From a virus (lineage: Duplodnaviria; Caudoviricetes): DNA of 39,675 nt. The position numbers were made by a program, and so were the translations under genes. The notes under the pieces were generated by a model, which was not told the DNA's origin, ran no database searches, and saw nothing but the letters and a program-made list of their open reading frames with translations. Position 1 is the first letter of the stretch, and the number at the start of each line of letters is the position of its first letter. The stretch is taken from positions 1 to 39,675 of IMG/VR virus record IMGVR_UViG_3300009678_000097, one strand, 5' to 3'. This document shows positions 541 to 39,620 of this stretch, in pieces.

Positions 541-3294
541 ATGGCAGGGTTAAAAATATCGGCAATGACTCCCCACGTGGGAGCATTCACAGAGGGAGAC
601 ATACCAGCAGTAATAGCTGGTAATAATAAAAAAGTATCCCTTCAGCAAATAAAGGACAGTATACCCCTCCCCTCATTGGAGAGTTTAGGGGCTGTAGGCA
701 TTGCAGGAGCACAAACTATAACAGGTGCAAAGACTTTTGAGGGTGGGCTTATAGTAGGCTCTACAGAGCTTACAGAGGCTGGCATTATCAACAAGGACAT
801 GAGCATGACCACAGGCCTGTACGAGTTTGGCGGCATATCTGTTACCTCAGGCACTACCTTTAGCGTAGGGGCTGTAAAGGGCTACGTGATAGACAATACA
901 GACGTAACTAACCCTGTGCCTATCTACGTAGAATATGCAGGAGCTACAGGGCTAACAACTCCCTATATTGCGTCTTCGTTTGCTACGTACATTTCTTTAG
1001 ACGAAGATGGGTTGTTGGTAATGTCATCGTCAGAACCCGAACCGGATTTTTATAGGAGCCATATTTTACTAGGTGTAATCGGACACCCTTCAGGCACATT
1101 AACCGGTGCAGGTAATAAACCTGACGTAATTATTGGCGGCATGGATCAGGTTAGGGATATGTTCAGGCCTATTCGCTTTATCAATGACGGTGTAGTATGT
1201 TACGGGAACGGTAGTGACTTAGCCCTTGCAAACACCACAGGTAAACTGTATGGATTAGGTATAGGCTTTGTGGCTAACGGTAAAGACAATCCATCCAGTA
1301 TTACCATTGCAGCAGGTGCACCTACTACTTTTCAGTACAGGACGCAGCTAGGTGGTAGCTTTTCAAATACTACATTAATTATTCCCTCCAGCTATGACAA
1401 TGCAGGCACGGTTACAGCAGTAGGTGGTGGTGCAAACAGCTCCACAAACCAGAGGATTTACTTACTCCAAAACGGTATGATTCGGATACAGTTCGGACAG
1501 TTTGTTTACAGCACATTAACGGACGCAATAGCTGCTGCACAATCTGAGGCGTTTGTGGTAAACCCTAACACTAGGCTAGGTGTACTCATCGGAATTTTAT
1601 CTATAACTAAAGGCTGTACTAACCTATCCAGCACAAGCACTGCAAGGTTCTTAGCTGTCTCCAAATTTGGGGAGAGTGTAGGTGCAGCAGCAGGTATAGC
1701 CATAGGCACACTCCAAAGCTCTTACGACAATAGCGTAATTCCAAACATACTTACTAACTCCACGCTAGGTGCTTTCTCTGTACGCAGGGGCAGCGCAGCA
1801 GACACGGACAAGGTACTGGACATTCTTAACGGGGCTGGTAGTTCTGTGTTTAGTGTAACGGGCGCAGGTAATGTAGCCAGCGCAAACCTTTTTACACAGG
1901 GCGGCAACGCTTTCGGAACAACGGCAACAATAGGCACGAATGAGGCACAGGAATTGGCTTTGGAAACGAATAACGTGGCGAGGGTGAGGATTGATGCAAA
2001 TGGGAATATGGCAATAGGAGGCGCACCCTCTACTAACAGGACATTATTAATCACAAAAACTCTTACAGGGACAACAACAGGCATTGATAATACATTAAAC
2101 TCAACCATAGCCTCAGACGTAACAGGTGTGAGGTATGGAGTTTTCTCACAAGGCAACACACAGGCAGCAGCTTTTACATTGCCTGACAATATACATTTTA
2201 CAGCAGAGGGTGCAGTAATAGGGGCAGGGTCAGCAATAACAAACCAAATAGGTTTCAAGGCTGGCAGCAGCTTAACAACAGCGTCAAACAATTATGGCTT
2301 TCGTGGTTTGATTTCAGCAGGAGCAGGGAGGTGGAATCTTTACATGGATGGAGATGCCAGCAACCACCTTGCAGGAGCTTTGTCAATCGGCAGCACAACT
2401 ATTCCGGCAAGTGTCTTGCTGCAAGTAGCCAGCACCACAAAGGGCAGCATTCCTGCACCTGTAATGACAACCACGCAGAGGGATGCAATAGGCTCACCTG
2501 TGGCTGGCTTAATGGTGTACAACAGCGTAACGCTTTCCCCGAACTACCACAACGGCACAACATGGGTGGACTTAGGCGCAGGCGGCTTTATCCAAAACAC
2601 CACAGTAGCTCAGACCGGAAGTTTTAATGTAACAGGCACGGGCAGGGTAGCTACCTCAATGCAGATAGCAACCACCACAGCACCCTCAGGCGCAGAAAAA
2701 TTAATGCTCGGTGGAGATATAAACTTTACAGCCACCAACCCTAAGATTATTGGACTTAGCAAGCACTTGCAACTAGAATTACTTTCTTCCTCAGGACGTT
2801 TCACTTGTACAACGGCTGGCACGGTGGGCATGTACCTCAACCACCAGAGGGGTGACTGTGATTTAGTGAACATACGCACCAGCACACAAGAGACAGGTGG
2901 AAACCGTATTTCCTTTATCCATAAAGAAACCTCCCTTTCTACGGAGACCTTTGGCGGCAATGTAGGCTATATGTTTGGGGTGAATACCTCAATATCTACG
3001 TCTTCCGTGGGCAAGATGGACGCAACCAAAGCCAGCTACCAAGACCTCTACCCTCTAGTACTGGCAGCAGGTAGTATAAAGAAGTGGACAAAGATAGAGG
3101 GCACGGACGTGTGGAAAGAGTATGGCACAAAGACTGAGCTTTACCCAACCACCTCAGCAAGCACGGTGCAGATAGGTTCTGCTACTATCATAATGTCAAA
3201 CCTGCCAACATACGCAGATAACACAGCAGCAGCAGCCTTAGCAGCAGGCACAGTATACAAGACAGCCACAGGGCAACTAATGATTAAATATTAA
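541..3294 (+). CDS. Tail fibre / receptor-binding protein
   Basis: G/T/S/A-rich mosaic protein with motifs AQTITGAKTF, LLQVASTTKG..PVMTTTQRDAI..GLMVYN and LPTYADN. ATG at 541 directly follows the upstream stop and is preferred over 445. Confidence 0.8.
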   Translation: MAGLKISAMTPHVGAFTEGDIPAVIAGNNKKVSLQQIKDSIPLPSLESLGAVGIAGAQTITGAKTFEGGLIVGSTELTEAGIINKDMSMTTGLYEFGGISVTSGTTFSVGAVKGYVIDNTDVTNPVPIYVEYAGATGLTTPYIASSFATYISLDEDGLLVMSSSEPEPDFYRSHILLGVIGHPSGTLTGAGNKPDVIIGGMDQVRDMFRPIRFINDGVVCYGNGSDLALANTTGKLYGLGIGFVANGKDNPSSITIAAGAPTTFQYRTQLGGSFSNTTLIIPSSYDNAGTVTAVGGGANSSTNQRIYLLQNGMIRIQFGQFVYSTLTDAIAAAQSEAFVVNPNTRLGVLIGILSITKGCTNLSSTSTARFLAVSKFGESVGAAAGIAIGTLQSSYDNSVIPNILTNSTLGAFSVRRGSAADTDKVLDILNGAGSSVFSVTGAGNVASANLFTQGGNAFGTTATIGTNEAQELALETNNVARVRIDANGNMAIGGAPSTNRTLLITKTLTGTTTGIDNTLNSTIASDVTGVRYGVFSQGNTQAAAFTLPDNIHFTAEGAVIGAGSAITNQIGFKAGSSLTTASNNYGFRGLISAGAGRWNLYMDGDASNHLAGALSIGSTTIPASVLLQVASTTKGSIPAPVMTTTQRDAIGSPVAGLMVYNSVTLSPNYHNGTTWVDLGAGGFIQNTTVAQTGSFNVTGTGRVATSMQIATTTAPSGAEKLMLGGDINFTATNPKIIGLSKHLQLELLSSSGRFTCTTAGTVGMYLNHQRGDCDLVNIRTSTQETGGNRISFIHKETSLSTETFGGNVGYMFGVNTSISTSSVGKMDATKASYQDLYPLVLAAGSIKKWTKIEGTDVWKEYGTKTELYPTTSASTVQIGSATIIMSNLPTYADNTAAAALAAGTVYKTATGQLMIKY

Positions 3295-3306
3295 TACCAA
3301 TAACCT

Positions 3307-3684
3307 ATGAACATTGAACTAGTATTAGCCCCCATGTTTGGGGTAAATAGAAAGGCCATCTTCGAATGCCTTATCTACAACCAGAGAAGCAAGACAGTAA
3401 CTACACAATGGGGTATCTATCCCACCACAGCAGAGGGGCAAATTATTACCTCCGCTATGTTTAGGACAGCCACAAAGGAGCTTATTGCAGACGAGAGCAC
3501 AATGGTAAACCCTGCCACAGGAGACTACGTGGTAGCAGACGCAGATGGCAACTACCCTGAGGGCAGCATTACAGAGTATGCCTACTTTGTCTATGTGGCA
3601 GAGAACGTGCCTGTAAAAGTGCATGAGTTAATACTGGCAGCAGGACAGAAAGCCGTGGCAGCAGGACGCTTTGATGCTATCTAG
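3307..3684 (+). CDS. Hypothetical protein (possible fibre-associated protein)
   Basis: 125 aa ORF directly downstream of the fibre gene. Confidence 0.6.
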   Translation: MNIELVLAPMFGVNRKAIFECLIYNQRSKTVTTQWGIYPTTAEGQIITSAMFRTATKELIADESTMVNPATGDYVVADADGNYPEGSITEYAYFVYVAENVPVKVHELILAAGQKAVAAGRFDAI

Positions 3685-4129
3685 TATGATTATCACACTA
3701 GAGACTATTAAAGAGCTAGCACAGCGCAGGGAGGTGTACACAGACACTCCCTGCTTTGAGCATAGAGGCATACGCATACTTACGCAGGACGTAAGGTTTT
3801 TAACCAGCACAGGGCAGGAGGTGCACATTAGAAAGGGCTTTGAGTGGGACGAGGCTAGCGTACCCTATGGACTACGTGCTATCTTCCCCAAGAGCGGCAA
3901 ATACGCTTTTTCAGCCCTTTTGCATGACGCTCTATACTACATGACACAAGGCACGCAGGAGCAGGCAGACTACGAGTTTTACCTGTGGATGCTGGCAACT
4001 ATTAACCCACAGCAGGCATGGTTTAGGTATAAAGCTGTGCAGCTATTTGGCTGGACGTACTGGAACAAGAATTTAAAAAAACCCTCCACAAGGTGCAGAC
4101 TGAACAGGAGACTAATAACAATCCTATGA
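3671..4129 (+). CDS. DUF1353-family protein
   Basis: GFEWDEASVP ... ALLHDALY ... AD.EF pattern. Confidence 0.8.
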   Translation: MMLSSMIITLETIKELAQRREVYTDTPCFEHRGIRILTQDVRFLTSTGQEVHIRKGFEWDEASVPYGLRAIFPKSGKYAFSALLHDALYYMTQGTQEQADYEFYLWMLATINPQQAWFRYKAVQLFGWTYWNKNLKKPSTRCRLNRRLITIL

Positions 4130-4596
4130 AACTCTTTTTTATTGCACCCATACTATTTATTAAACTAAAGTTCTTTCCTGACCATGACCTGCTTGTGTGG
4201 ATGGGCATAGCTATTATGCTAGATTTTCTTACAGGTGTGGCCAAGGCTGTGGTACTAAAGAAAGCACGTACAAGCTCAGGCTTTAGGATGACCATTATAA
4301 AGTTTATGCAGTATGCAGGCTCATTAGCAGCAGGCATAATAATAAGCAACGCAGCTAAAGATAACGGCTTTGTAGACGTGGGCAAGCTGGCTGGCTACTT
4401 TAACGAGGGGCTTATAGTATTCATTATCTACATAGAGGTGACTAGCGTATTTGAGAACCTGTACGCAGTAGACAATACCAGCGCATTTGCACGGTTTTTT
4501 ATAAACCCTATTTATAGGATATTAACGGTGCAGTTAGGAAAGCTAAGTAGAGTAGCAGACGCAGCAGAAGCAGAAACTAAAAAAACACAAATATGA
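4126..4596 (+). CDS. Phage holin (holin_4-like)
   Basis: LDFLTGVAKA..SSGF..K..E..S.FENL pattern, several hydrophobic segments, ATGA overlap with the previous stop. Confidence 0.8.
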   Translation: MKLFFIAPILFIKLKFFPDHDLLVWMGIAIMLDFLTGVAKAVVLKKARTSSGFRMTIIKFMQYAGSLAAGIIISNAAKDNGFVDVGKLAGYFNEGLIVFIIYIEVTSVFENLYAVDNTSAFARFFINPIYRILTVQLGKLSRVADAAEAETKKTQI

Positions 4597-4922
4597 AGTT
4601 TAAACCATGGGCAAAAGATGCCACCACAGGAGAGAAAATTACCAACACAGCTATACTGCTTTTTGTAGTAGGCCTGTATATGTTTATGCAGCTATCTGCA
4701 TGGCAGGTATTTGAGAACCTCTACAGCAAAGAGTGTGCGTTAGCTCCAGTATTTTTCCACGCATTAGGCGGGGTGCTGAGTATCTTATCTATTACCGGTA
4801 TCTACCTTATGATTAAGGACAAGATAGGCAGAACCTCCACGGGCGCAGGAATGGCAGCAGTAGGTGTGCTTACAGCTTTAACCTTTTTGAGCTACGCAGG
4901 TTTTTATGCTTACGGTTATTAG
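4593..4922 (+). CDS. Membrane protein (3 predicted TM), lysis region
   Basis: Three hydrophobic stretches; ATGA coupling to the holin. Confidence 0.65.
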   Translation: MKFKPWAKDATTGEKITNTAILLFVVGLYMFMQLSAWQVFENLYSKECALAPVFFHALGGVLSILSITGIYLMIKDKIGRTSTGAGMAAVGVLTALTFLSYAGFYAYGY

Positions 4923-5325
4923 TATGTTAATCCTATTACAAATACTCTCCCTTTTGTTTGCAGTAGCCTGTGGGGTACATGACGTAGTGCCGGTGCTAAA
5001 GATGATACGGTACGGAGCTAGCCCTAAAGAGGCTTTAATGTTTCACCGTAGTGGGTTTATGGCTAGAGGGCTATTTGCGGCAGGGGTGAGTATTTGTAAC
5101 GGGGTATCCTATGAGACCCTATTTTTAGCCCTTTCTATGGGTTTTATTATGTGGGCAGGCTTTGACATATCCCTAGGCTGGATAGTGAAAGGAAAGGCCT
5201 TTTATGTAGGCCAGACAGCAAGCCTAGACAAATGGCTAAGAAGGTGGGGAAGGTATGCAGGGCAGATAAAGGCTGGCTTTTGTTTGCTGGCAGTAGGCAT
5301 ACTTAACTGGCTAATTTTTAGATAA
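4906..5325 (+). CDS. Membrane protein, lysis region
   Basis: Multiple hydrophobic stretches; overlaps the previous gene. Confidence 0.6.
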   Translation: MLTVISMLILLQILSLLFAVACGVHDVVPVLKMIRYGASPKEALMFHRSGFMARGLFAAGVSICNGVSYETLFLALSMGFIMWAGFDISLGWIVKGKAFYVGQTASLDKWLRRWGRYAGQIKAGFCLLAVGILNWLIFR

Positions 5326-5356
5326 AAAAAAAGAGAGGCTTTACCAGAGCCTCCCC
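5324..5356 (-). terminator. Intrinsic terminator on the minus strand
   Basis: Minus strand reads GGGGAGGCT-CTGGTAA-AGCCTCTC followed by a T-run. Confidence 0.6.
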
Positions 5357-5490
5357 GTAGATGAAACTTAACCAAGTTTCTAACCGTGACTACAAACCTA
5401 TGACAGAATATTCACTTATGCAAGTTTATACACAAAGTAATTTAAAAGCCTTTGAATATAATACAAGCACACACACAACCGTACCAACAC

Positions 5491-6015
5491 ATGAAACGTA
5501 TACCCACAGCAGCTTTGCTCATATTATTCTTAGCTTCATGTACCACTACAAAGAAGCTACTGAATAAACAAAATAAAGTTATCCACACTACTGAACAAGT
5601 AGCCAAAGTGGACAGCTCCAGCTTAAAAAAAAAAGACAGTTCCACGCAGTTAAGTGCCGTTATCACAACCACCCAAAAGGAGGCACACTATGACACGGAG
5701 ACCACTACAACCAAGTATGACACCACAGGCAAGGTAACTGAGGTGAAGGTGGTAAAAGCTAAGGTAAACAAGAAAGCTAAGACGGACACCAAGGCAGCAG
5801 CCATAGTCACCACAGCCCACCACAGCGAAACTAAAGCCCATACAGACAGCACAGCAAGCAAGCAGACAAGTAGCACGGAGAAGACTAAAGACGTGAATAT
5901 AAGCAAGCCTAACCTCTACACAGGGTTTATAACTGGCTTTATACTCCTCCTCCTCCTTATTGTGCTTGTAAGGTATTTGATTAAAAAAGTACTCCCTAAA
6001 TTTTACCCTTTCTGA
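5491..6015 (+). CDS. Lipoprotein, candidate unimolecular spanin
   Basis: MKR + hydrophobic core + lipobox LASC, T/K-rich middle and C-terminal TM helix; located between holin and endolysin. Confidence 0.7.
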   Translation: MKRIPTAALLILFLASCTTTKKLLNKQNKVIHTTEQVAKVDSSSLKKKDSSTQLSAVITTTQKEAHYDTETTTTKYDTTGKVTEVKVVKAKVNKKAKTDTKAAAIVTTAHHSETKAHTDSTASKQTSSTEKTKDVNISKPNLYTGFITGFILLLLLIVLVRYLIKKVLPKFYPF

Positions 6016-6017
6016 AT

Positions 6018-6473
6018 ATGAGAGCCATAACCCATGTGACTGTGCATTGCAGTGCAACTCCACAGACTACAACCATAGCCTCCATGCAGAGCTACTGGAA
6101 AAATATACTAGGCTGGAAAAACGCAGGCTACCACTACATAGTAAAGCCCAATGGAGATATTGAAAGGCTTACACCTGAGAGCATACCTAGCAACGGAGTG
6201 AAGGGACATAATGCCACGGGCATACACGTCTCTTATATCGGAGGCATAGACAAGGCAGGCAACGCAGTAGATAACCGTACACCAGAGCAAAAGGCAAGCC
6301 TACTAAAGCTACTCAGGGAGCTTGTGGACAGATACCCTAATGTGAAAATACTAGGGCACAGAGATTGGTCTCCAGATAAAAACCATGACGGAAAGATAAC
6401 CGTACACGAATGGCTAAAGAGCTGCCCATGCTTTGACGCTATACCAGAGTACAAACACTTAACTAAAGCATGA
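6018..6473 (+). CDS. Endolysin, N-acetylmuramoyl-L-alanine amidase (Amidase_2, T7 lysozyme-like)
   Basis: VHCSAT, GYHY, SYIGG, GHRD and KSCPCFD zinc-amidase motifs. Confidence 0.93.
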   Translation: MRAITHVTVHCSATPQTTTIASMQSYWKNILGWKNAGYHYIVKPNGDIERLTPESIPSNGVKGHNATGIHVSYIGGIDKAGNAVDNRTPEQKASLLKLLRELVDRYPNVKILGHRDWSPDKNHDGKITVHEWLKSCPCFDAIPEYKHLTKA

Positions 6474-7063
6474 AGGATATAAAGATACTACACCTAGACA
6501 TAGAGACAAGCTACAACCAAGGGAGTTTCTGGAGGGCTGGTTTTAAGCTCAATATAAACTACCAAGACATTAAGAAAGAGCGGGGCATTATCTGTATATG
6601 CTACAAGTGGCACGGACAAAAGAAGGTGCACAGCCTAGAGTGGAGCACTAACCAGAGTGACAAAAAGCTAGTAAAGGAGTTTATAAAAGTGATGGACGAG
6701 GCAGACGTAATAGTGGGGCATAATATAAACAGGTTTGACCTAAAACATATACGCACACGGGCACTATTCCACGGCCTGCCGATGAAACGTAAATATAACG
6801 TAATAGACACCCTTACACTAGCACGTAGCCTAGGCATGTTTAATAGTAACAAGCTGGACTACTTAGCACAGTACTTAGGGGTAGGCTGCAAGATAAAGAC
6901 GAGTATGGCATTGTGGGATAACATTATACTACATAAATGCCCTAAGGCTATGAGGGCTATGGTGAAGTACTGCAAGCAGGACGTAGTAGTACTAGAGGCT
7001 GTGTTTACAAAGTTTCTCCCCTACATACCAGAGAATAAGTTTAAAAAGAAAGTGAAAATATGA
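6470..7063 (+). CDS. DEDD / RNase H-like 3'-5' exonuclease domain protein
   Basis: LDIET (ExoI), GHNINRFD (ExoII) and YCKQDV (ExoIII). Confidence 0.85.
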   Translation: MKDIKILHLDIETSYNQGSFWRAGFKLNINYQDIKKERGIICICYKWHGQKKVHSLEWSTNQSDKKLVKEFIKVMDEADVIVGHNINRFDLKHIRTRALFHGLPMKRKYNVIDTLTLARSLGMFNSNKLDYLAQYLGVGCKIKTSMALWDNIILHKCPKAMRAMVKYCKQDVVVLEAVFTKFLPYIPENKFKKKVKI

Positions 7064-7347
7064 TTATAAAAAGTAAAGTAGTTACAGCCGTGCTGGAAGA
7101 CATAGCAGGCAGGGAGCAGGCAGGGTTAAGAAAGTATGGCACTACCGTGGACAGGCAAGACCTCTCCCCACAGGAGTGGAGGCAGCACATGTACGAGGAG
7201 CTACTGGACGCAGCCGTGTACTGCAAAAAGCAGATAATGGCAGAGCAACCCCTGAGGACATTAACCCCACACGAACTAATTGAAATGAAAGAGCAATACC
7301 TTAAAAAAATACAAGCCATAGATTATGAGTTTAGAACAAGAGGATAA
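7060..7347 (+). CDS. Small helical phage protein, possibly MazG/all-alpha NTP-pyrophosphatase-like
   Basis: G..KYGTT.DR.DL..W..H..EELLDAAVY; EExxD acidic helix. Confidence 0.5.
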   Translation: MIIKSKVVTAVLEDIAGREQAGLRKYGTTVDRQDLSPQEWRQHMYEELLDAAVYCKKQIMAEQPLRTLTPHELIEMKEQYLKKIQAIDYEFRTRG

Positions 7348-7567
7348 GACCCCTGAGGACAGCCTTAGTGCCTTTAGTGACTTAGATTTTATGGCACAGG
7401 AGATAGGTATAGCTAGCAATGCCCTAGCCCTTGCGGAGAGTGTGAAAGAGTATTCATGGAGAATAGGGGTATCACAGGAACGCATAGACGCTGTAATGGT
7501 GCAGGCTTTTGACGTGGTAGAGTATAACCTGCAGAAACTCCACAGCACCCTGCCAGCCTCAGAATAG
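7325..7567 (+). CDS. Hypothetical protein
   Basis: 80 aa ORF overlapping the previous gene and ending just before a terminator. Confidence 0.6.
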   Translation: MSLEQEDKTPEDSLSAFSDLDFMAQEIGIASNALALAESVKEYSWRIGVSQERIDAVMVQAFDVVEYNLQKLHSTLPASE

Positions 7568-7588
7568 TTTTAAAAAAGTTTACAAGTT

Positions 7589-7613
7589 AAGCCTCTGACA
7601 TTCAGGGGCTTTT
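7589..7613 (+). terminator. Intrinsic terminator
   Basis: AAGCCTCTGA-CAT-TCAGGGGCTT followed by Ts. Confidence 0.7.
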
Positions 7614-7634
7614 CTGTGTGTATGAAAATAATTT

Positions 7635-7708
7635 AAAAATAGTTTGCAAAATGTTTGGCTGTGTAAACTCGTTTGTACTATATTTGCAATACACAAACAC
7701 ACAAACAC
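7635..7708 (+). promoter_or_regulatory. Repeated host-sigma promoter cassette, copy A
   Basis: AAAATAGTTTGCAAAATGTTTGG ... TATATTTGCAATAC + CA-rich leader; matches the Bacteroidota -33 TTTG / -7 TAnnTTTG consensus. Confidence 0.85.
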
Positions 7709-7972
7709 ATGACTACCTCAATTTTAACCTTTGGCAAATTTAACGGCAAACGATTTTGCGACACCCCAACATGGTATCAAGAGTGGGCAAAAAAGCAAGC
7801 CGGATTCATGGCTAGGCTTTCTGGAGAGCCAAAGCCTCCAAAACGTCCAGCCTACCTAGACGGGCATAGCCGTAAAAGCCAAGCCTTTGAAAGCGCACAG
7901 TTTGAATATGAAATGGCTATGGCAGATAAGTATGACCCCTCAGACAGGTACGGAATGTACTACGGAATTTAA
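7709..7972 (+). CDS. Small protein with FGK.G motif (DUF3820 / ExoX C-terminal-like)
   Basis: LTFGKFNGKRFCDTPTWYQEW; ATG at the end of the promoter leader. Confidence 0.6.
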   Translation: MTTSILTFGKFNGKRFCDTPTWYQEWAKKQAGFMARLSGEPKPPKRPAYLDGHSRKSQAFESAQFEYEMAMADKYDPSDRYGMYYGI

Positions 7973-8012
7973 ACCACACGGGGAGCTAACTACTCCCCAC
8001 AAACATAAAAAA

Positions 8013-8330
8013 ATGATTTCTACCCCTTACAAAGAGTTTCACATAGTCAGCCGGTCAGCCGGTAGCCTCCACGTTATCTACAAAGCAGGCTCTCAGGTAT
8101 TCACCGCAAGACACCAAGAGTGTTACTGCATGGAGACAGCACAGGCTTTAATAGATGCCAGCCTAGCACAGAAAGAGGTGCAGGATAGAGCTAAGGCAGC
8201 ACACCAAATAGACCTATGGAAAGAGGAGGACTTTAGGACGGCTTGCGAGTTAGAGAATGGCGCATGGCTCAGGGACAGGGAGGAGCGCATGTGGGAGCAA
8301 AAGGAACTTATTGAAACTAATAAACTCTAA
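8013..8330 (+). CDS. Hypothetical protein
   Basis: ATG after a hairpin linker and A-rich leader; in frame with ORF 7887-8330. Confidence 0.6.
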   Translation: MISTPYKEFHIVSRSAGSLHVIYKAGSQVFTARHQECYCMETAQALIDASLAQKEVQDRAKAAHQIDLWKEEDFRTACELENGAWLRDREERMWEQKELIETNKL

Positions 8331-8334
8331 TAAA

Positions 8335-8643
8335 ATGAAAAGGACAGTATTGGTTATTAAAATTGACGGGGTAGAGCAGGAGGTAAAGACCTGCTACCTG
8401 CCCATAGGCTGTGTGCCCTACTACGCAGAGCTAAACTGTGGAGGCTTTGGCAGGCTGGTGCTGGATGAAGACCATGACCTTATAATAGCTAAAGACTACT
8501 CCACGTGCCCCACAAGGGTGGGGTGGTTTAACCTAGACGGCAGGTACTACTCAGGCAATGGCTTAATAGTACGGAATAAGGAAAGCAGGGAGGACGTAGG
8601 TATAGATATAGAAACTTTTAAACAACGTATAAAATTTATTTAA
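8335..8643 (+). CDS. Hypothetical protein (weak DUF3846-like)
   Basis: ATG 4 nt after the upstream stop; GNGLIV motif. Confidence 0.55.
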   Translation: MKRTVLVIKIDGVEQEVKTCYLPIGCVPYYAELNCGGFGRLVLDEDHDLIIAKDYSTCPTRVGWFNLDGRYYSGNGLIVRNKESREDVGIDIETFKQRIKFI

Positions 8644-8644
8644 C

Positions 8645-8932
8645 ATGGCAAGACGAGTATACAATCTCTGCACTACTTTGCACCTCATTGTGTGCAAGAA
8701 CGAACTTAACCAGATAGCCTCAGGAGAGCAGACAGAGGCTACACAGATAATGAGCAAGTACTGGCTAGACAAGCTCATAGACCGTAACGGATGGGCACGG
8801 CATAAAGAGGTGTGCTTTACCAATGGCACACAAAAGGATGCCCCAAAGGTGACTGTGGCACTAAAGCGCATACGCATGGACACCCCTAAAAGGGTAATGA
8901 TAATTGAACTAGGAAAAATACTTTCAAACTAA
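8645..8932 (+). CDS. ASCH-like domain protein (degenerate motif)
   Basis: LHL....IASGE....YW..L...V.FTNG..KDAP....IELGKIL pattern. Confidence 0.6.
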   Translation: MARRVYNLCTTLHLIVCKNELNQIASGEQTEATQIMSKYWLDKLIDRNGWARHKEVCFTNGTQKDAPKVTVALKRIRMDTPKRVMIIELGKILSN

Positions 8933-8948
8933 ATAAACCCCCATAGAT

Positions 8949-9611
8949 ATGAGATGGATACCTGTTACTGAAAGATTGCCGGAAGAAGCAAACGTATTAG
9001 TTGCCTACAAATTTGGAGTTGGGGAGTGTAAATATTACATTAATCAGTTTTGGATGAACCATGCTGAAGTTCCCGAAGTCACCCATTGGATGCCGCTACC
9101 GCCAAAGCCTGACGAATCCACTCCTGCCTACCAAGAAGGGGAGTTGGTGGATATTCCAAAGCCAGTTGGAGATTTTATCATTAGTCAGGAAGATATTACT
9201 CCCGTAATAACTGAAAACGGGTATTATTACCACTTTGGCAGCGTTTGTGTTTTATTAAAAAGATACGGTGCAAAATGGGCTGCATCCACCCCCGCCTACA
9301 AGGAGGTAGAGGAATTAGCGGAAAGGTTTGCTGAAATGAACTACTGTGAGGTTAAAGACAGTTATGATTACTTATATAAAGGCTTTATAGCTGGCTATGC
9401 CGCCTCTCAACCCGAAAAAAAGGAAGATAGCGCATTGAAGATATTGCTTGAAAATACCAAGTTCGCAAAAAGTATGGCACAGGGTAAAGATAAAGATTGG
9501 GTAAGATGGGAAGAAGTCATTGAACAAATGGAACTTTATTTAGTGGAAGAAAGTAGCAACCGCAAAGCTGGCTATGCCGCCGCAGCTACGCAAAAAAACA
9601 ATTTACAATAA
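8949..9611 (+). CDS. DUF551-domain mosaic protein
   Basis: WIPVTERLPE ... VTHWMPLP. Confidence 0.8.
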   Translation: MRWIPVTERLPEEANVLVAYKFGVGECKYYINQFWMNHAEVPEVTHWMPLPPKPDESTPAYQEGELVDIPKPVGDFIISQEDITPVITENGYYYHFGSVCVLLKRYGAKWAASTPAYKEVEELAERFAEMNYCEVKDSYDYLYKGFIAGYAASQPEKKEDSALKILLENTKFAKSMAQGKDKDWVRWEEVIEQMELYLVEESSNRKAGYAAAATQKNNLQ

Positions 9612-9632
9612 CCCACAATCCCCTACATTTGT

Positions 9633-9848
9633 ATGACAAACGAATTAAAGACCATGGCAAAAGCTGGAAACAAAGTGCCTTACTCAATGAGGCTAGACAA
9701 AGACCTTATAGAGGACTTAGAGAAAGAGGCAGCAGACCAGAACCGCTCTGTAGCTAACCTCATAGACACTATTTTAATGCACCACTACAAGGCGCAGCCG
9801 TGGAGCAAGACGCACAAAAAAACAGTAAGTAAACCTTTTAAAAAGTAA
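9633..9848 (+). CDS. Ribbon-helix-helix (Arc/CopG-like) DNA-binding protein
   Basis: YSMRLDKDLIEDLEKEA..NRSVANLI; TACATTTG -7 box at 9624-9631. Confidence 0.8.
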   Translation: MTNELKTMAKAGNKVPYSMRLDKDLIEDLEKEAADQNRSVANLIDTILMHHYKAQPWSKTHKKTVSKPFKK

Positions 9849-9851
9849 CAC

Positions 9852-10084
9852 TAGGTGTACACAAAAGTGCACCCCTCCACGTGGAATGAGCCACCAGAGC
9901 CACGCACAGCAATCCTGTGCGGATTAATTATGCAAACTTTATGAAACCTCTGAGCCTCAGGGGTTTCTGCTTTTAGGTACTGCCGGCCAATGCTTTACAC
10001 TCCACAAGAAACTTGTACAGCTTGCAACAAATAAACATACCTTTACACAAGTAAATACAAAAAGTGCACCCCAAAGTGCACCCC
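9852..10084. other. attP region with arm-type repeats
   Basis: AAAGTGCACCCC at 9864-9875, 10061-10072 and 10073-10084, flanking about 185 bp of non-coding DNA directly upstream of the integrase. Confidence 0.7.
9943..9974 (+). terminator. Hairpin/terminator inside attP
   Basis: GAAACCTCTGA-GCC-TCAGGGGTTTC then TGCTTTT. Confidence 0.6.
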
Positions 10085-10098: not shown

Positions 10099-11148
10099 AT
10101 GAAAGTAACCGCTATACTAAAGAAGGGCACGGTAACTATACGCACCACCACGGGCAAGGTGAGAAAGTTTAAGGCTACCAAAATGAGAGCTACCCCACAG
10201 GAATGGGACAGTAAGGCAGGCAGGTGCAAAAGTAACCACCCTAGCTCCACACACTTTAACATAGCTATAAAAAAGCTCATAGCAGAGGCTACCCTAGCTG
10301 GCGCAGCCCCCGCTCCAGAGTTTGCAGACGGTTACCTGTTTAAGTACGCACTAGCCAGCATAGACGCATGGGAGAGGACTAAGGCCAGCACCACACTCAG
10401 GGAGTATAGAGCCTCAGTACGCAAGCTACAGGGCTACACGGCAGACCGGAAGCTATCCACGGTTAATATAGATTTCCTGCAAGGCTACCAAGACTACTGC
10501 TTTAATGAGGGGAATGCACACGGCACGGTATGGAATGCTTTTAAGTTCCTAAAGCTCATTATGAAAAAAGCCCACAAGGAGAGGTTAATACAGTACAACC
10601 CTTTCGCGCAGTTTAGTGCCGTGAAGTACAAGAACCCTGAGAGGCCATTTTTAGAGCAGGAGGACGTGGCAAGGGTAGAGGCTTACAGCACAGGAGACAG
10701 GGGCACAGAGAGCCTGAGGTTTGCAGCTAGGTGGTTTGTGATAGGATGCCACACGGGACTGAGGTACGGAGATATGAATAAATTTAACAAGCTGGAGCAC
10801 ATACGTAACGGCAGGCTTATGCTATACACAAGCAAGACAGGGGAGCTGGTAAGTATACCCTTTAAGCACAGGCTTGTGGAGTTGTTTGCAAGGGTGCAGT
10901 ATAAGCCCCTCCACCAGCTAAACGAGAACTATAACCGATATTTAAAGCAGGTGCAGCAGGCCTGTGGCATACATACCACGCTATCCAGCCACGTGGCAAG
11001 GCACACCTTTGGAGTGTACTGTGCAGACCAAGGCCTGAGTATAGAGGTTACCGCAAAGCTGCTAGGCCAAAAGGATTTAAAGGTAACAGCTATCTACTAC
11101 AAGATTTCTAACAAGAGGCTAGACAAAGAGGTAGACTTGTTGTTTTGA
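10099..11148 (+). CDS. int: Tyrosine integrase (Bacteroidota type, SAM-like core-binding domain)
   Basis: TGLRYGD, SKT, HVARHTF, LLGQ and TAIYY catalytic motifs. Confidence 0.93.
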   Translation: MKVTAILKKGTVTIRTTTGKVRKFKATKMRATPQEWDSKAGRCKSNHPSSTHFNIAIKKLIAEATLAGAAPAPEFADGYLFKYALASIDAWERTKASTTLREYRASVRKLQGYTADRKLSTVNIDFLQGYQDYCFNEGNAHGTVWNAFKFLKLIMKKAHKERLIQYNPFAQFSAVKYKNPERPFLEQEDVARVEAYSTGDRGTESLRFAARWFVIGCHTGLRYGDMNKFNKLEHIRNGRLMLYTSKTGELVSIPFKHRLVELFARVQYKPLHQLNENYNRYLKQVQQACGIHTTLSSHVARHTFGVYCADQGLSIEVTAKLLGQKDLKVTAIYYKISNKRLDKEVDLLF

Positions 11149-11243
11149 AACAAGAAAGTATTTATGTGTCAAATGACGCACTAATTTACAAAAATGTGGT
11201 GTAGGTTTGCACTCTATGCAACACCCTACAACACAACCCATAG

Positions 11244-11639
11244 TTATAATTTTTCTATCTCAGCTTTTACTTGCTGATTTACAGCAACTTCCAGCTCAGA
11301 CAGCACGGTAGCAATAGACACACCCCGCTCTTTTGCTAGTAGCTCTGCAAAGACCATTAAAAACACACGCTGTGTAGCCTGCATCTGCACTACTTTCTGT
11401 AAGATAATGCTAGTAGGACTATCTACCTGTGCTACTGTGTCTGTGCCGTACATTTCTGCAAATTTTTTATAAACCTCTGTGGGCACGTTTATTCTCCCGT
11501 TTATCACATTTGATAGGCTTGTTCTATTCCAGTCCAGTTTTTCTGCCAGCTCCTTGTAGCCCTTTAACTCCCCTTTGTCAATCAGTTTATTAACAGTCTC
11601 TATAAAGAACTTTGTAATACTACTCTGCCCGTTTGTCAT
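11244..11639 (-). CDS. XRE-family HTH repressor (CI-like)
   Basis: ELAEKLDWNRTSLSNVINGR helix-turn-helix; divergent from a Cro-like gene. Confidence 0.8.
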   Translation of the reverse strand: MTNGQSSITKFFIETVNKLIDKGELKGYKELAEKLDWNRTSLSNVINGRINVPTEVYKKFAEMYGTDTVAQVDSPTSIILQKVVQMQATQRVFLMVFAELLAKERGVSIATVLSELEVAVNQQVKAEIEKL

Positions 11640-11756
11640 GGTGGTTTGTTTGGGTTAGCTACACAATATAATACAAAAAGAATTATCTTACAAAGTTTGT
11701 ATTTTATTTGGTAGTTGTTATAAATTGTTTATCTTTGTGTGACAAAACAAAAAATA
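11640..11756. promoter_or_regulatory. Lysis/lysogeny switch region with rightward promoter and candidate operator
   Basis: TTTGG ... TATCTTTG (11730-11737); inverted repeat TACAAA-G-TTTGTA at 11689-11701. Confidence 0.7.
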
Positions 11757-12011
11757 ATGCAAACAATCACAAACACACCTCAACCCAAAGCCGCCAATTT
11801 AAGGCGCAAGTGTGGAGACCTGCTAAAAGTTGTAAAGGATAACGTGACCCCCTCTAATAAGGTGGAGGCCATGGCTACCCTGAAACTCTCCAGACCTACG
11901 CTAGATAAGTACATACATGGCAACGTAAGCAAGCTGGACACGGGCATGGCTCTGCTAGCTTTCCTACAGGCTAAGGTAGACGAATCAAATAGGAGGCTAG
12001 CGGAGATATGA
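11757..12011 (+). CDS. Cro-like HTH protein
   Basis: EAMATLKLSRPTLDKYIHG; first gene of the rightward early operon. Confidence 0.65.
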   Translation: MQTITNTPQPKAANLRRKCGDLLKVVKDNVTPSNKVEAMATLKLSRPTLDKYIHGNVSKLDTGMALLAFLQAKVDESNRRLAEI

Positions 12012-12205
12012 AGCAACAAGCCCCTCTCTGGATTGCAGAGGCAGACGCAGCAAAGTTAATGGGCTTTAAGCCTATGACTTTACGCAGGTATGCACAAGCA
12101 GGCAAGGTAGCCATAACCTACACAAGGGTAAACTCCAGAACCTTTGAATATTGCCAGCACAGTATTAATGCCCACAAGATTAAAAACTCAACTCTTACAA
12201 ATTAA
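12008..12205 (+). CDS. Excisionase-like (HTH_17/MerR-like) protein
   Basis: WI...DAAKLMGFKPMTLRRYAQAGKV. Confidence 0.65.
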   Translation: MKQQAPLWIAEADAAKLMGFKPMTLRRYAQAGKVAITYTRVNSRTFEYCQHSINAHKIKNSTLTN

Positions 12206-12206
12206 A

Positions 12207-12245
12207 TTTGGAAGTATGCTACAAAGTAGTATATTTGCAATACAA
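12207..12245 (+). promoter_or_regulatory. Host-sigma promoter
   Basis: TTTGG ... TATATTTGCAATAC (12230-12243), same core as the repeated cassette. Confidence 0.8.
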
Positions 12246-12261
12246 TTAAATACAAAATAAA

Positions 12262-12513
12262 ATGAACCAGACTAACTACAGAAAAGGCTCTTACTGCCAG
12301 TACAAAGTAACGGACTTGGAAATTATACGAGTCTCCTCTTATGGTATTGACGTATACCGCAAAGCAGATAATGATGCTACGTTTGCCTATTTCTACCATG
12401 ACGCTATGCTAGCAGGCTCAGAGATAGAGGCTACAGAGTTTGTGGAGACCTTCAATAAGCAATGGATGAAAATAGCAGGCACATTATCTAACCTTTTAAA
12501 ACTGGCAGCATGA
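12262..12513 (+). CDS. Hypothetical protein
   Basis: 83 aa ORF downstream of a promoter, ATGA-coupled to the next gene. Confidence 0.65.
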   Translation: MNQTNYRKGSYCQYKVTDLEIIRVSSYGIDVYRKADNDATFAYFYHDAMLAGSEIEATEFVETFNKQWMKIAGTLSNLLKLAA

Positions 12514-12698
12514 CCACGGAGCTGGATAATTTTGAGAGAATGCAGGCAGTAATGCAGCTAAATGAACTCTCTACAAAGGACACAGACGTTATGGAGCTAC
12601 TTGCCGAGGCAGCAAGAAAGGCAAGGCTAATAGCGGCTAAGAAACAAATACGGTACGGTGTACCATTACAGACCTTAAACCAAGCACAAACAGTATGA
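12510..12698 (+). CDS. Hypothetical protein
   Basis: 62 aa ORF, ATGA-coupled on both sides. Confidence 0.65.
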   Translation: MTTELDNFERMQAVMQLNELSTKDTDVMELLAEAARKARLIAAKKQIRYGVPLQTLNQAQTV

Positions 12699-13519
12699 GC
12701 ACAAATTTAACGGTAGCAACTACCACGGCACACGGCCTGCAGTTCACAGACGAGCAAATAAGCCTCATAAAGGCTATGGTAGCTGAGAAAGCTACAGATA
12801 ACGAACTAAAGCTATTCCTGCACCAATGCAGCAGGACAGGGCTAGACCCTATGACTAGACAAATTTACTGCATTCACCGTGGCGGCAAGATGACCATACA
12901 GACCTCTATAGACGGCTTTAGGGTGGTAGCTGAAAGGTCAGGAGCTTACGCTGGCCAAGCAGAGCCGGATTATATCTATAACGCAGACAAGGCACTAATA
13001 GGCTGCAAGGTTACTGTGTTTAAGTTCAGCCCACGGGGAGACCGTTACCCCGCAGCAGTAGGGGTGGCTTATTGGGCAGAGTATGCACAGACAAGTGGGC
13101 TGTGGTCAAAGATGCCTCACACAATGATAGCCAAGGTAGCAGAGGCCTTAGCCTTACGTAAAGCATTTCCGCAAGACCTGAGCGGCTTGTATACTACAGA
13201 CGAAATGGAGCAAGCTAACGAAGGGCAGGAGGTACGCAGCAGCTTTAAGTACTCTCTCTGGATGCAGAACGAGCTGGAGCAGCTACTTGCCACCAGCACC
13301 TACCAGAGCGGCAGTAAAGAGTTTGCTAGCATACAGAACACTATAGCTATGCACAACCTGCCTGAGGCTACCTATAACAGGGTTAAGGCTGGCCTACAGG
13401 CTAACCAGCTCTCCCCAATGGACAGGGGTAACATGTCAGCCACAGAGGTAAACAAGGCTGTACAGGCCAAGGCTCAGGCTGAGGACATAGATTTTGAAAC
13501 CATAGCTAAAACTGCCTGA
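12695..13519 (+). CDS. bet: Phage recombinase Bet (RecT/Red-beta ssDNA-annealing protein)
   Basis: ELKLFLHQC..TGLDP..RQIY, IQTSIDGFR..AER, W.KMP.TM.AKVAEALALRKAFP. Confidence 0.92.
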   Translation: MSTNLTVATTTAHGLQFTDEQISLIKAMVAEKATDNELKLFLHQCSRTGLDPMTRQIYCIHRGGKMTIQTSIDGFRVVAERSGAYAGQAEPDYIYNADKALIGCKVTVFKFSPRGDRYPAAVGVAYWAEYAQTSGLWSKMPHTMIAKVAEALALRKAFPQDLSGLYTTDEMEQANEGQEVRSSFKYSLWMQNELEQLLATSTYQSGSKEFASIQNTIAMHNLPEATYNRVKAGLQANQLSPMDRGNMSATEVNKAVQAKAQAEDIDFETIAKTA

Positions 13520-13592
13520 CTAAAGCAGTTGATGCCCTTAATAAATTCCCAATATTGGGAGCTTTCAATAACCAGAAATTAAAACAAGTACC

Positions 13593-13874: not shown

Positions 13875-14016
13875 GACCGTACCCTTTGACCGTAGATGAA
13901 ACCTGTTATCTCATACCCCATGGCCAATAATCTAACCCCCGTGCTACCTGCTTTTCTGGATTTACCCCGTGTGGGTATGGGCTAACTATTAGCTAACCCA
14001 TTAACTCACTAACCCC

Positions 14017-14760: not shown

Positions 14761-14784
14761 CACTCACACTAAAACTAACTACAA

Positions 14785-29207: not shown

Positions 29208-29246
29208 TCCACGTGGCGTAATAACTAAAAATTATATTTAAAGAGT

Positions 29247-30023: not shown

Positions 30024-30132
30024 AAGCAATCGCAAGACAACTCCGAAGCAATCGCAAGACAACTCCGAAGCAATACAATTAAAGAAGGGTTAAGAAGGTA
30101 AAGAAGGTAAAGAAAGTAAAGAAGTATAATAC
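30024..30132 (+). repeat. Orphan origin-like repeat array
   Basis: (AAGCAATCGCA AGACAACTCCG)x2 + AAGCAATACAA, then five TAAAGAAGG-like units ending ATAATAC. Confidence 0.85.
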
Positions 30133-32379: not shown

Positions 32380-32410
32380 ATGCCCCTACTCCACGTGGCA
32401 AAAGAAAGTT

Positions 32411-35146: not shown

Positions 35147-35440
35147 ATGAAAAAAATCACCCTTACCACAGTCAAGAGTTTCTTAAAGAAAAACAAAGGA
35201 GCTATCTACATTAACGTAAAGTCTAGCTTTGACGGCATGACAGACGGATGCGAAATGCAGACTAAAGGCTTTAAACTGGCGCAGGCGGCAGAGCAGAACT
35301 TTTCAGACACCTTAGGCATAGAGGGTGCATGGTTCGTGGGTAGCAGCCGTGACTACTTTACAGCCTACGAGTGTGGACAGTTTACCGGAATTGAGGTCTA
35401 TAACTCTTGCGGAAAGTTCATCTTAGCCGTTCAAAAGTAA
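35147..35440 (+). CDS. Hypothetical protein
   Basis: 97 aa; SSFDGMTDG, G.WFVGSSRDY, V.NSCG; ATG at the end of leader E. Confidence 0.75.
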   Translation: MKKITLTTVKSFLKKNKGAIYINVKSSFDGMTDGCEMQTKGFKLAQAAEQNFSDTLGIEGAWFVGSSRDYFTAYECGQFTGIEVYNSCGKFILAVQK

Positions 35441-35494
35441 CCACGTGGGCAAGCCTCCTCCAGAGCGGGGAGGTAGCCCTTTAAAAATAGTAAC

Positions 35495-36801: not shown

Positions 36802-37203
36802 ATGATTCAGCTAACCAAGGGCACTACAGTAGACGTAATAGTGACGGCAACCGAGAAGGTGACGCTTACAGCACCATACTTTCTGTGGGTATTTACAAAC
36901 CCTGAGACTGATAACACAGTTACGTGGATAGTCTCCAGCGTAGATGACCAAAGCCCTTTCCCTGAGCGGTACAATGACTTTAACATGGACGTGGACGTGG
37001 TGTTTTTTATGCAACCTGAGGGGCAATGGCACTACAAGATTTACGAGCAGGATAATGACACCAACACAGACCCCACGCTAGCTACTACCCTTGTAGAGCA
37101 GGGTATGCTCATTTTAAACAAGGCAGCAGCCAGCATACGAACTATTAAAAAGTTTGCACCTACAGCAGCCACAATAAAAGTATTTAATGAAACCACAGAG
37201 TAA
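36802..37203 (+). CDS. Hypothetical virion-associated protein
   Basis: 133 aa, beta-rich; overlaps the portal start; follows an ATATTTAGGGG motif. Confidence 0.6.
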   Translation: MIQLTKGTTVDVIVTATEKVTLTAPYFLWVFTNPETDNTVTWIVSSVDDQSPFPERYNDFNMDVDVVFFMQPEGQWHYKIYEQDNDTNTDPTLATTLVEQGMLILNKAAASIRTIKKFAPTAATIKVFNETTE

Positions 37204-39115
37204 AACAGACACAGTACATGTGCTCCAGTTTGCCGCTAAGGATATACCAGAGTACAAGGAGACCACTAGCGGGGCACGTAAGATAGTAAACTACGGGGCA
37301 GATAATAAGTTTCCAGACTACCTGCTAGAGCTTTACAGCAAGTCTCCAAAGCACGGAGCTATAGTAAAAGGCAAGGCCATGTACATAGCTGGCTCAGGCT
37401 TTGAGTTTAAGGACAAGCAAAGCGAGGGGCTTAATGAGAGCCTAAAGACAGTAAACAGGTACGGGGAAAGCCTTAACAAGGTAGGCAAAAAGTGCATACT
37501 TGATAATGAGATTTTCTATGGCTTTTACCTCCAGATTATCTATGGCAAGGGAGGCAAGGTATCGGACGTGCTCCACGTGGACTACAACAAGATACGGAGC
37601 AATGCAGATAACAGCATTTTCTATTATAAAGAAGACTGGAAAAAGACCACAGGAGAGGTAACCCCTTACCCCTGCTTTAATCCTGACAAGCCCACAGGTA
37701 CACAGATACTATACTACAAAGGCTACAGGGCTGGCATACAGACCTACACTATACCTGACTACCTGAATAGTCAAATGTACATTGAAAGTGACATTTTAGT
37801 AGCTGGCCATGTGCTGAACAATGCAAATAGCGGATTTACGGGCAGCAAAATGATTTCCTTCAATGACGGAGAGCCTAGCCCTGATGAGGCAAGAACCATA
37901 GAGACTAAGCTAAACGACAAGTTTACTGGCAGCAAAGGCAGCAAGCTGGTGGTGAACTTTTCAGCAAACCCTAACGTAGCCCCCACGGTGCTGGACTTAG
38001 GGGCTAGCGATATGTCAAAGGAGAACTTTACCCCTGTAGATGAGCTTATAAGTCAGAATATTTTTACAGGACACCAGATTGTTAGCCCTATGCTTTTTGG
38101 GGTACGCGTGGAGGGGCAGCTAGGTGGACGTAATGAAATGAGGGAGGCCTACGAGATATTTAAAAACACTTACATAAATAACAGGCAGCAAGAGGTAGAG
38201 GAGGTGTTTAATACAGTACTAGCCCTTAACGGCCTGCCTGAGGTAAGAATTGTGCCAGTAGAGCCAATAGGCTACGAGTTCAGCGAGCAGACCATAGTAC
38301 AGGTAGCTCCTAAGGCCTATATACTTGAAAAATTGGGCATTAACCCAAATGACTATGCAGAGGACGATGTAGAACCAGAGGCCAAGGACGAGGCTAAGAA
38401 TGCCCCTGAGCAGGTAGAGGAGGACGAGGACACGGAAGGAGAGGACGTAAAGAGCAAGACTAAAAAAAAAGAAAAGTTTAGCAGTCTAGATGACGAACTA
38501 GCCCTTACCTTATTTTCTCAGGTAGGGGAGGACAGTAAAGGCTATTTTAGGTATAGCAGCAAGAAGGTTTGTTTTCATTCAGACGAGGAGTGCAGGGCAG
38601 GAGAGATACAGGGCTACAGGCAGGCATTTGCTGAGATAACCATACTAGAGGCTAACATTATTGACCTGCTAAAGAAGGACAAGAGAGCTACCCCTGAGGT
38701 TATAGCAAAAGCTCTGGAGGTCTCCCCTGAGCTAGTGCAGAGAGTGTTAAGGACGCTCTCAGACAAGGGAATGATAAAAGTAGGCACGGAGAAAGTGGGA
38801 GACGAGAAGACCACCACAAGGGACGTAACAGAGGGAGGCAAGGAGGCTATAAGCAAAAGGACTCCAACGAGCACGGAGGTATTTATTAAATACAGCTACG
38901 AAGGTCCTGAGGATGAACGTAATAGAGATTTTTGCGCCCACATGCTAGACCTAGATAAGATATACTCACGTGTAGAAATTGAGCAGATAAGCCAAAGGCT
39001 AGGCTACTCAGTTTGGGAGCGCAGAGGGGGATTTTACACTAATTCAGTAACAGGGGAAACCACACCCTACTGCCGCCACTATTGGATGCAGCACATAGTT
39101 TTAAAAAGAAAGTAA
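37187..39115 (+). CDS. Portal protein with C-terminal HTH and MuF-like extension
   Basis: YG.DN.FP.YL.ELY..SP.H.AI, Y..PDY, GH....P.LFG; C-terminal YSY.G....R.FC..M and RGG...CRH.W. Confidence 0.85.
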   Translation: MKPQSKTDTVHVLQFAAKDIPEYKETTSGARKIVNYGADNKFPDYLLELYSKSPKHGAIVKGKAMYIAGSGFEFKDKQSEGLNESLKTVNRYGESLNKVGKKCILDNEIFYGFYLQIIYGKGGKVSDVLHVDYNKIRSNADNSIFYYKEDWKKTTGEVTPYPCFNPDKPTGTQILYYKGYRAGIQTYTIPDYLNSQMYIESDILVAGHVLNNANSGFTGSKMISFNDGEPSPDEARTIETKLNDKFTGSKGSKLVVNFSANPNVAPTVLDLGASDMSKENFTPVDELISQNIFTGHQIVSPMLFGVRVEGQLGGRNEMREAYEIFKNTYINNRQQEVEEVFNTVLALNGLPEVRIVPVEPIGYEFSEQTIVQVAPKAYILEKLGINPNDYAEDDVEPEAKDEAKNAPEQVEEDEDTEGEDVKSKTKKKEKFSSLDDELALTLFSQVGEDSKGYFRYSSKKVCFHSDEECRAGEIQGYRQAFAEITILEANIIDLLKKDKRATPEVIAKALEVSPELVQRVLRTLSDKGMIKVGTEKVGDEKTTTRDVTEGGKEAISKRTPTSTEVFIKYSYEGPEDERNRDFCAHMLDLDKIYSRVEIEQISQRLGYSVWERRGGFYTNSVTGETTPYCRHYWMQHIVLKRK

Positions 39116-39116
39116 T

Positions 39117-39620
39117 ATGAAACCTATAGCATATTTTTTGAGCGAGGAAACGCTAAAGGAGCGCACAGTAGTTAGTGCCCACGTGGACACAAAGCTACTT
39201 AACCAAGCAATTTGGGACGTGCAGGAGAGGGTAATGCAGCCCATACTAGGCACTACACTTTATAACAGGCTGGTAGCTGGCATAGATGCAGAGGACTTAA
39301 CGGCAGAGGAGACCACCCTACTGGAGGACTACCTGACCAATGCAATGCTTTTTTATGTCATTGCAGAGCTGCCCTACATGTTAGGCTACAAGTTCCACAA
39401 CAAGAACGTACTAAAGAAGACAGCAGAAAATGCAGAGGCAGCTAGTATGTCAGAGCTTGCAGACGTGATGAAGTACTATATGAACAAAGCAGAGTTTTAC
39501 GAGCAGAGGGCTATAGTATTTCTAAAAGAGCAGTACAAGCTAGGGATATTCCCTGAGTATGCAGAGTGCTACGACATGCCCCCTAACCAGAGTGGCTACA
39601 GGTGTGGCATAGTTCTTTAA
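39117..39620 (+). CDS. Head-tail adaptor protein
   Basis: Helical; Q.....ILGT.LY.RL, A.FY..R...FL; directly after the portal. Confidence 0.65.
   Translation: MKPIAYFLSEETLKERTVVSAHVDTKLLNQAIWDVQERVMQPILGTTLYNRLVAGIDAEDLTAEETTLLEDYLTNAMLFYVIAELPYMLGYKFHNKNVLKKTAENAEAASMSELADVMKYYMNKAEFYEQRAIVFLKEQYKLGIFPEYAECYDMPPNQSGYRCGIVL

Follow-up and report, generated by a model that had tools for sequence, protein, structure and literature searches.

The stretch of DNA analysed here (the window) comprises all 39,675 nucleotides of the IMG/VR virus record IMGVR_UViG_3300009678_000097 (Duplodnaviria; Caudoviricetes) and amounts to the entire record of a temperate phage, across which the 8-bp palindrome CCACGTGG occurs exactly 15 times, a density of 378/Mb. 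The phage encodes an Arm-DNA-bind_5 integrase, RecT, a BT4734-like primase-helicase, terminase, portal, capsid, tail and lysis proteins, and its host probably belongs to the Bacteroidota, judging from the named relatives of its terminase (Mucilaginibacter, Chitinophaga) and from repeated promoters of the form TTTG...TAnnTTTG, which we take to be the Bacteroidota promoter consensus. Words of the restriction type have been purged from the genome to an extreme degree: 33 of the 64 six-base palindromes are absent, CCNGG does not occur (about 120 copies expected), GGNCC occurs once, GGNNCC twice and GATC once, GCTNAGC and CCAN5TGG are both missing, and the CpG ratio is 0.46. No modification genes are detectable in this purged genome.

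Ten of the CCACGTGG copies are genic, nine of them read in the frame that gives xHVx and one as PRG, in keeping with the several reading frames reported by the first-pass annotation, whose 15 start positions all proved correct, with none missed. The nine fall in the tail fibre gene (573-580, P-H-V-G), the H-x-x-R region of the integrase (10989-10996, S-H-V-A), gene 17687-18229 (17938-17945), which appears sigma-like from a reading of its sequence and has no family match, the small terminase (20361-20368, VHV), gene 22778-23374 (23329-23336), gene 24147-25322 (25070-25077), gene 25338-27440 (27116-27123, GHVD), the portal gene (37573-37580) and the DUF6712 gene (39179-39186), and the tenth lies in the primase-helicase (15115-15122, SPRG). 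The remaining five are intergenic, a share well above the 7.6% of positions that are intergenic (5/15, P = 0.004). They are found at 9877-9884, 28 bp past the gene of a ribbon-helix-helix (RHH) protein and adjoining an arm-type repeat of a putative attP; at 22274-22281, between divergent genes and upstream of a leftward sigma-A-type promoter ending at 22212; at 29209-29216, 1 bp past the stop of the tape-measure gene; at 32391-32398, upstream of a sigma-A-type promoter ending at 32461; and at 35441-35448, immediately 3' of the stop of gene 35147-35440. The claim that five copies occupy key intergenic places thus stands as to their number, whereas attP is deduced from the arm-type repeats, and at 22.2 kb, where divergent promoters had been proposed, the leftward promoter alone matched the pattern. 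Altogether, the genes that contain a site or directly follow one include those for primase, terminase, tail, head protease, portal and fibre proteins. The repressor gene and the immunity region hold no copy, nor does the interval 10997-15114, and a 9.3-kb stretch with fibre, lysis and small genes (581-9876) is likewise free of CCACGTGG; this stretch is no recent import, since it is as thoroughly purged of restriction words as the remainder.

Contigs from sequencing runs X1-X3 show no substitutions relative to the window wherever they cover it. The contigs of X1, possibly the source sample, together with a contig of run X2, which belongs to another study and independently covers the site at 25070 without a difference, establish that the array is not an assembly artefact. 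No RNA data set is among those listed as containing the phage. At window position 30738, which is intergenic, one base is missing from the X1 and X2 contigs, probably reflecting a homopolymer error or a variant in the window.

The abundance of CCACGTGG is not accounted for by base composition. Dinucleotide shuffles of the window yield a mean of 0.24 copies and a maximum of 3, none of 100 shuffles reaching 15, and Markov models predict 0.60 copies at order 2 and 1.24-1.4 at order 3, or 0.82 at order 3 with the sites masked. At order 3 the word ranks first among all 8-mers (p ~1e-11); at order 4, a model that already takes up some of the signal, its rank is second (15 against 2.9, about 3), after an iteron word. 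Where the earlier estimate was less than one copy per genome, shuffling and Markov models of orders 2-3 give 0.24-1.2, and none of them returns counts similar to those observed. The same applies to nulls that preserve the encoded proteins, since 2000 synonymous shuffles place a mean of 0.68 and at most 4 copies within genes, against the 10 observed. Amino acid usage is also affected, with 11 xHVx contexts against 3.2 after amino acid shuffling (about 3-fold), nine of the 11 holding CCACGTGG.

Comparison with homologs points in the same direction. The small terminase reads VHV where aligned homologs mostly read xEV or xEI, the 700-aa tail protein reads GHVD where homologs are mostly of the GHLD type, and the primase reads SPRG where four of four close homologs read SPSG or SPGG. 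The integrase and portal sites cost little, because histidine is common among homologs at those positions, and the single-column comparisons are suggestive and no proof, because the homologs are 25-54% identical. Taken with the spacing tests described below, these results uphold the first-pass view that the copies are selected binding or marking sites, and we hold it very probable that selection acts on the DNA word itself. The converse reading, in which the purging of restriction sites and codon bias produced the array without selection for it, can draw on the fact that ACG is the preferred CG context of this genome and that further words are also enriched, such as CCTSAGG (30 against 8). However, the other enriched words are unevenly spaced (P 0.68 and 0.47), the codon and amino acid shuffles fail by a large amount to produce the array, and at the primase site an arginine stands in place of a conserved small residue. 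The neutral reading is already contradicted by the shuffle, spacing and ranking tests, and its probability is negligible.

The copies are also more evenly placed than chance allows. As first noted, they recur every 1-4 kb from 9.9 kb onward and are absent from 0.6 to 9.8 kb: the gaps measure 1055-4126 bp, mostly about 2 kb, plus one of 9304 bp. The smallest gap is itself improbably large (P(min gap >= 1055) = 0.0008), and without the largest gap the coefficient of variation is 0.40 (P = 0.001); a gap of 9.3 kb would not by itself be surprising if sites were placed at random (P = 0.34). Evenness persists under a null that limits each gene or intergenic block to a single site (P = 0.003-0.004), and CCACGTGG is the most regular of the 37 8-mers with 12-20 copies. 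Furthermore, its one-mismatch variants show no excess (13 against 13.0 expected), no column up to 80 bp from the sites rises above the null, as a conserved flank would, and asymmetric subwords occur apart from the full palindrome no more often than expected (CCACGTG, 5 against 5.3), so that recognition looks all-or-none. From the lack of variant excess, flanks and one-sided enrichment, together with the even gaps, it follows that the signal consists of the exact palindrome with nothing around it, and that the value of a copy is tied to the distance to the next. That the array is real, exact, evenly spaced and under selection is well supported, and from these properties we infer a reader and a purpose. 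Two other functions were considered and rejected: late promoters, because no second motif lies within 80 bp and genic sites are no nearer to gene starts than chance, and a Chi-like asymmetric subword, because none is enriched. Separately, the word ACCCCGC occurs nine times between positions 396 and 34505 on both strands (1.3 expected) with a regularity of P ~0.01, a borderline case that perhaps reflects chance.

The first-pass annotation had linked the octamer to chromosomal parS, and the identity of the core is genuine: the central 8 bp of Bacteroidota parS are identical to the phage word, and clustered copies in two Bacteroidota genomes (G003 and G001) are full GTTCCACGTGGAAC sites. One could therefore envisage host ParB loading at CCACGTGG as it does at parS and bringing in SMC. 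Against this, the parS flanks GTT/AAC are present at 0 of the 15 phage sites, TTCCACGTGGAA does not occur, G occupies the GTT position in only 2 of 30 half-sites, and the phage copies are dispersed instead of clustered. In a study of ParB and Noc, specificity is set by half-site positions 1 and 6 (PMC7383237), and by our own mapping position 6 falls outside the CCACGTGG core. The phage array is not parS, and loading of host ParB is very unlikely. Nor does the phage supply a complete system of this kind: ParA and a DNA-binding ParB were not found in it, and the ParB-like protein (18891-19433, + strand) matches the ParB N-terminal domain alone, shows no detected DNA-binding domain and is represented by homologs at 62 loci that lack the array, all of which make it an unlikely reader. 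The proposal that this protein or the helix-turn-helix of the portal reads the word is weakened by the occurrence of homologs of both in relatives that lack CCACGTGG.

Outside this phage the word is scarce. With loci of the same phage (L001, L005, L258, L282 and L334) excluded from all counts, four copies are spread over 160 other terminase or capsid loci, eight tail-protein loci hold none, 47 whole records hold at most three each, even though 23 of these were found through the pattern scan or other matches already holding a copy, and 118 other pattern-scan loci likewise show at most three. The closest relatives by protein identity reach 71% for the terminase, 53% for the integrase and 38% for the tail protein. 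No palindrome is at once strongly enriched and evenly spaced in 25 related phage records (five read to 40 kb), and a scan of all words in 29 phage records (three read to 50 kb) revealed no comparable array; regular words that did surface in other phages were discarded as a tandem repeat (G408), as in part a duplicated stretch (G424) or as weak signals attributable to chance given the many words tested. The array is private to this phage lineage among reachable sequences, and the literature searched, which covered few subscription papers, holds no description of such an array in phages. The 40 kb surrounding a primase homolog of 50% identity (G496:C21, L450-L451) show a purge like that of the window (GATC 0, CCNGG 1) and no CCACGTGG.

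Bacterial genomes were surveyed in a sampled set of 401 from the phylum of G003 and 301 from its order, which partly overlap and among which the true host of the phage is not identified. Densities peak at 61/Mb in the former and about 32/Mb in the latter. In the top phylum genomes the inspected stretches with CCACGTGG were mostly GC-rich, and four outlier genomes show no prophage-like cluster among the matches listed (for G619, 100 of 134 rows). A DNA search of the 401 genomes for the host returned primase homologs and one short repeat match and nothing else, and composition matching with 19 host stretches gave r <=0.49. The suggestion of a HIP-like host trait (after the highly iterated palindromes, HIPs, of cyanobacteria) or host self-mark therefore finds no counterpart in this set (at most 61/Mb against 378/Mb). 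It could be, nonetheless, that the word is recognised by a factor from the actual host, outside the sample and perhaps of a small lineage rich in the word, whether a methyltransferase with repair as for alternate HIPs, a nucleoid protein or a defence protein, and that the phage is served or spared by it. The all-or-none exactness is enzyme-like, the searches recognised no genome as that of the host, and alternate HIPs are lineage-specific in cyanobacteria (PMC4390886). Moreover, the phage has no recognisable methyltransferase catalytic domain, matches labelled as methyltransferase spanning only the ParB-like or protease part of proteins. On the other hand, none of the genomes approaches the phage density, GC-rich stretches account for the highest counts inspected, the four outliers lack a prophage-like cluster among the matches listed, and a self-mark would be expected to be dense in the host chromosome. 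We regard a host factor as unlikely, while giving it some weight.

Two phage-encoded machines might also require such sites. The BT4734-like primase (14785-16641, + strand), which carries PriCT-1 (below cut-off) and a helicase part, would be a candidate reader if CCACGTGG were its priming site, laid out at Okazaki-length spacing on both strands. The spacing of 1-3 kb agrees with this, and CCACGTGG ends in GTGG on both strands, the sequence at which the NrS-1 primase-polymerase, an AEP-class phage primase that recognises an 8-mer, primes efficiently (PMC8718748). The NrS-1 site, however, is non-palindromic and present as a single copy in its own genome, an enzyme acting on single strands could do without a palindrome, yet the one-sided subwords show no enrichment, and 9.3 kb devoid of a priming site would be awkward. 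Moreover, no CCACGTGG lies near any of four full-length homologs of the primase (44-54% identity; contigs of 2.8-40 kb), and four more distant primase-bearing phages have no comparable array, making a priming role improbable. Alternatively, the small terminase or the portal-fused winged helix might read the word as a mark for packaging or on the virion, or the word might provide nick sites in the virion. A private word would separate phage from host DNA, and the portal does match a winged helix, but about ten relatives with full-length portal homologs (32-42% identity) have no CCACGTGG and even spacing has no clear packaging reason, so that this explanation has little likelihood. The portal gene itself (37187-39115) encodes a fusion to the winged helix and a further C-terminal domain, with the same match length in about ten relatives.

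Several properties of the array bear on what kind of protein might read it. A dimer reading double-stranded DNA would be expected because the full palindrome alone is enriched, each bound site would serve about 1-2 kb because the spacing is under-dispersed even at one site per gene, and a phage-encoded reader would follow from the rarity of the word in hosts. That some phage protein is the reader seems somewhat more probable than the opposite. About six candidate DNA-binding proteins are encoded by the 40-kb phage. The repressor is unlikely to be the reader because the immunity region lacks CCACGTGG; a protein resembling the DnaA C-terminal helix-turn-helix (17053-17481, + strand) is a rival candidate and a lead only (TM ~0.5-0.6, below the Atlas naming bar), for which no phage homolog was found; and the zinc-finger gene 35831 has weak partial matches only. 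Gene 35147 was rejected, with CCACGTGG in none of nine records with homologs. The leading but weak candidate is the RHH protein (9633-9848, + strand), whose predicted fold is CopG/Arc-like (Foldseek probability 0.9-0.99, but E > 0.2). Such a protein fits an 8-bp dyad by geometry, and the RHH protein MetJ binds an 8-bp palindrome, the box AGACGTCT, with the same ACGT centre as CCACGTGG (PMC3413123). The homologs P0268 and P0269 share the RHH strand (PYSMRL) of the window protein, and the record with the most similar retrievable RHH strand (G404) holds four CCACGTGG copies in its whole length, against 1.7 expected. The identification of the RHH protein as the reader is nevertheless doubtful.

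Our tentative proposal, in which we place less than even confidence, is that the CCACGTGG copies are dispersed docking sites for a dimeric phage protein and act as orientation-independent roadblocks that quiet the prophage. A two-fold symmetric, sequence-specific protein would dock at CCACGTGG at intervals of about 2 kb along phage DNA but only rarely on that of the host, marking the former apart from the latter, and the bound sites would stop RNA polymerase from entering prophage lytic genes in either direction, as compared with the one-directional stoperators of mycobacteriophages. The stoperators of Cluster A mycobacteriophages such as L5 and TipsytheTRex (PMC9283540) resemble the array in that a single site recurs many times over the genome of a temperate phage and in being proposed roadblocks bound by a phage protein, the roadblock being a proposal for CCACGTGG as well. 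They are described there as 13-bp, asymmetric sites, oriented with transcription, confined to short intergenic spaces and common to repressor operators, whereas CCACGTGG is an exact 8-bp palindrome, genic in 10 of 15 cases and absent from the immunity region, with no oriented site and none at a repressor-controlled promoter.

A number of observations weigh against the docking-site proposal. No reader has been seen to travel with CCACGTGG, the absent one-mismatch halo would be more typical of an enzyme than of a repressor, the lysis genes, which would be the most harmful if leaky, lie within the CCACGTGG-free gap, and stoperators are bound by the immunity repressor at asymmetric sites between genes, which does not apply to the CCACGTGG sites. 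The RHH protein raises further difficulties. RHH proteins require adjacent dimers (PMC3413123), and the tandem adjacent boxes of their operators have no equivalent here, each site standing alone with 1055 bp or more to the next. Of 17 viral RHH loci, 14 lack CCACGTGG and the three that hold it all belong to G404; 30 of 30 host RHH loci and an integrase-RHH locus of G776 are without it, as is the region upstream of the RHH gene itself. Lastly, the closest RHH homolog may travel with the integrase (equal longest contig, 12,692), which fits a local att role.

The other close parallel is with HIP1 and the alternate HIPs of cyanobacteria, described in PMC5861425 and PMC4390886 as 8-bp palindromes, at least 15-fold over-represented, found in several frames and between genes, non-randomly spaced and of unsettled function, all of which recalls CCACGTGG (15 copies against 0.24-0.82, genic and intergenic, or 12-fold under the unmasked order-3 model). 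According to the same sources, HIPs fill host chromosomes and are accompanied by a cognate methyltransferase and conserved near-variants. The CCACGTGG array is instead confined, among the genomes searched, to the phage, in which no methyltransferase was detected, and its one-base variants are unbiased (13 against 13.0). In matS/MatP and the KorB operators, too, a dimeric protein recognises a DNA domain by dispersed palindromes, some of them genic, although these sites are 13 bp long and much sparser, and their cognate protein is known; MatP appears among the structure matches only as a weak row. The array works most like stoperators or HIPs and meets the definition of neither.

Beyond the silencing of a prophage, it is possible, though unlikely, that the array is an instance of an undescribed and recurrent phage strategy, in which a private exact palindrome about every 2 kb would allow a phage protein to mark the genome as self at kilobase resolution and to halt a DNA-tracking agent (RNA polymerase, a translocating restriction enzyme, an exonuclease or an SMC-type defence complex) under unusually heavy restriction pressure. 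Phages normally lose palindromes, and the even retention of one exact word at the cost of amino acid changes speaks for a function exerted at the DNA level over about 1-2 kb. The array may expose a new silencing or counter-defence mechanism, and a 40-kb genome with 15 sites offers a small test bed for the role of highly iterated palindromes.

Further features of the genome deserve mention. The repeats next to the 9877 site are three direct copies of AAAGTGCACCC (9864-9874, 10061-10071 and 10073-10083), which flank a terminator-like hairpin upstream of the integrase and are likely arm-type sites of attP; an X1 contig passes unbroken through this region. In G404, an otherwise distant record, the RHH homolog (49%) adjoins a homolog of gene 35147 (72%; L325:3452-3911), while the two genes are 25 kb apart in the window. 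Arrays of a 9-bp unit, AAAGAAGGT or similar, occur at 14429-14487, within the replication-initiator gene as in an iteron-like origin, and at 30074-30132, between the head protease and scaffold genes, where the second array could be another origin or a titration site. Near-identical, strong sigma-A-type promoters recur at 7629, 11692, 12200, 16981, 22212 (minus strand), 32406, 33767, 35072 and 35767, leading islands of small unknown genes that include an AAA and DUF7192 pair.

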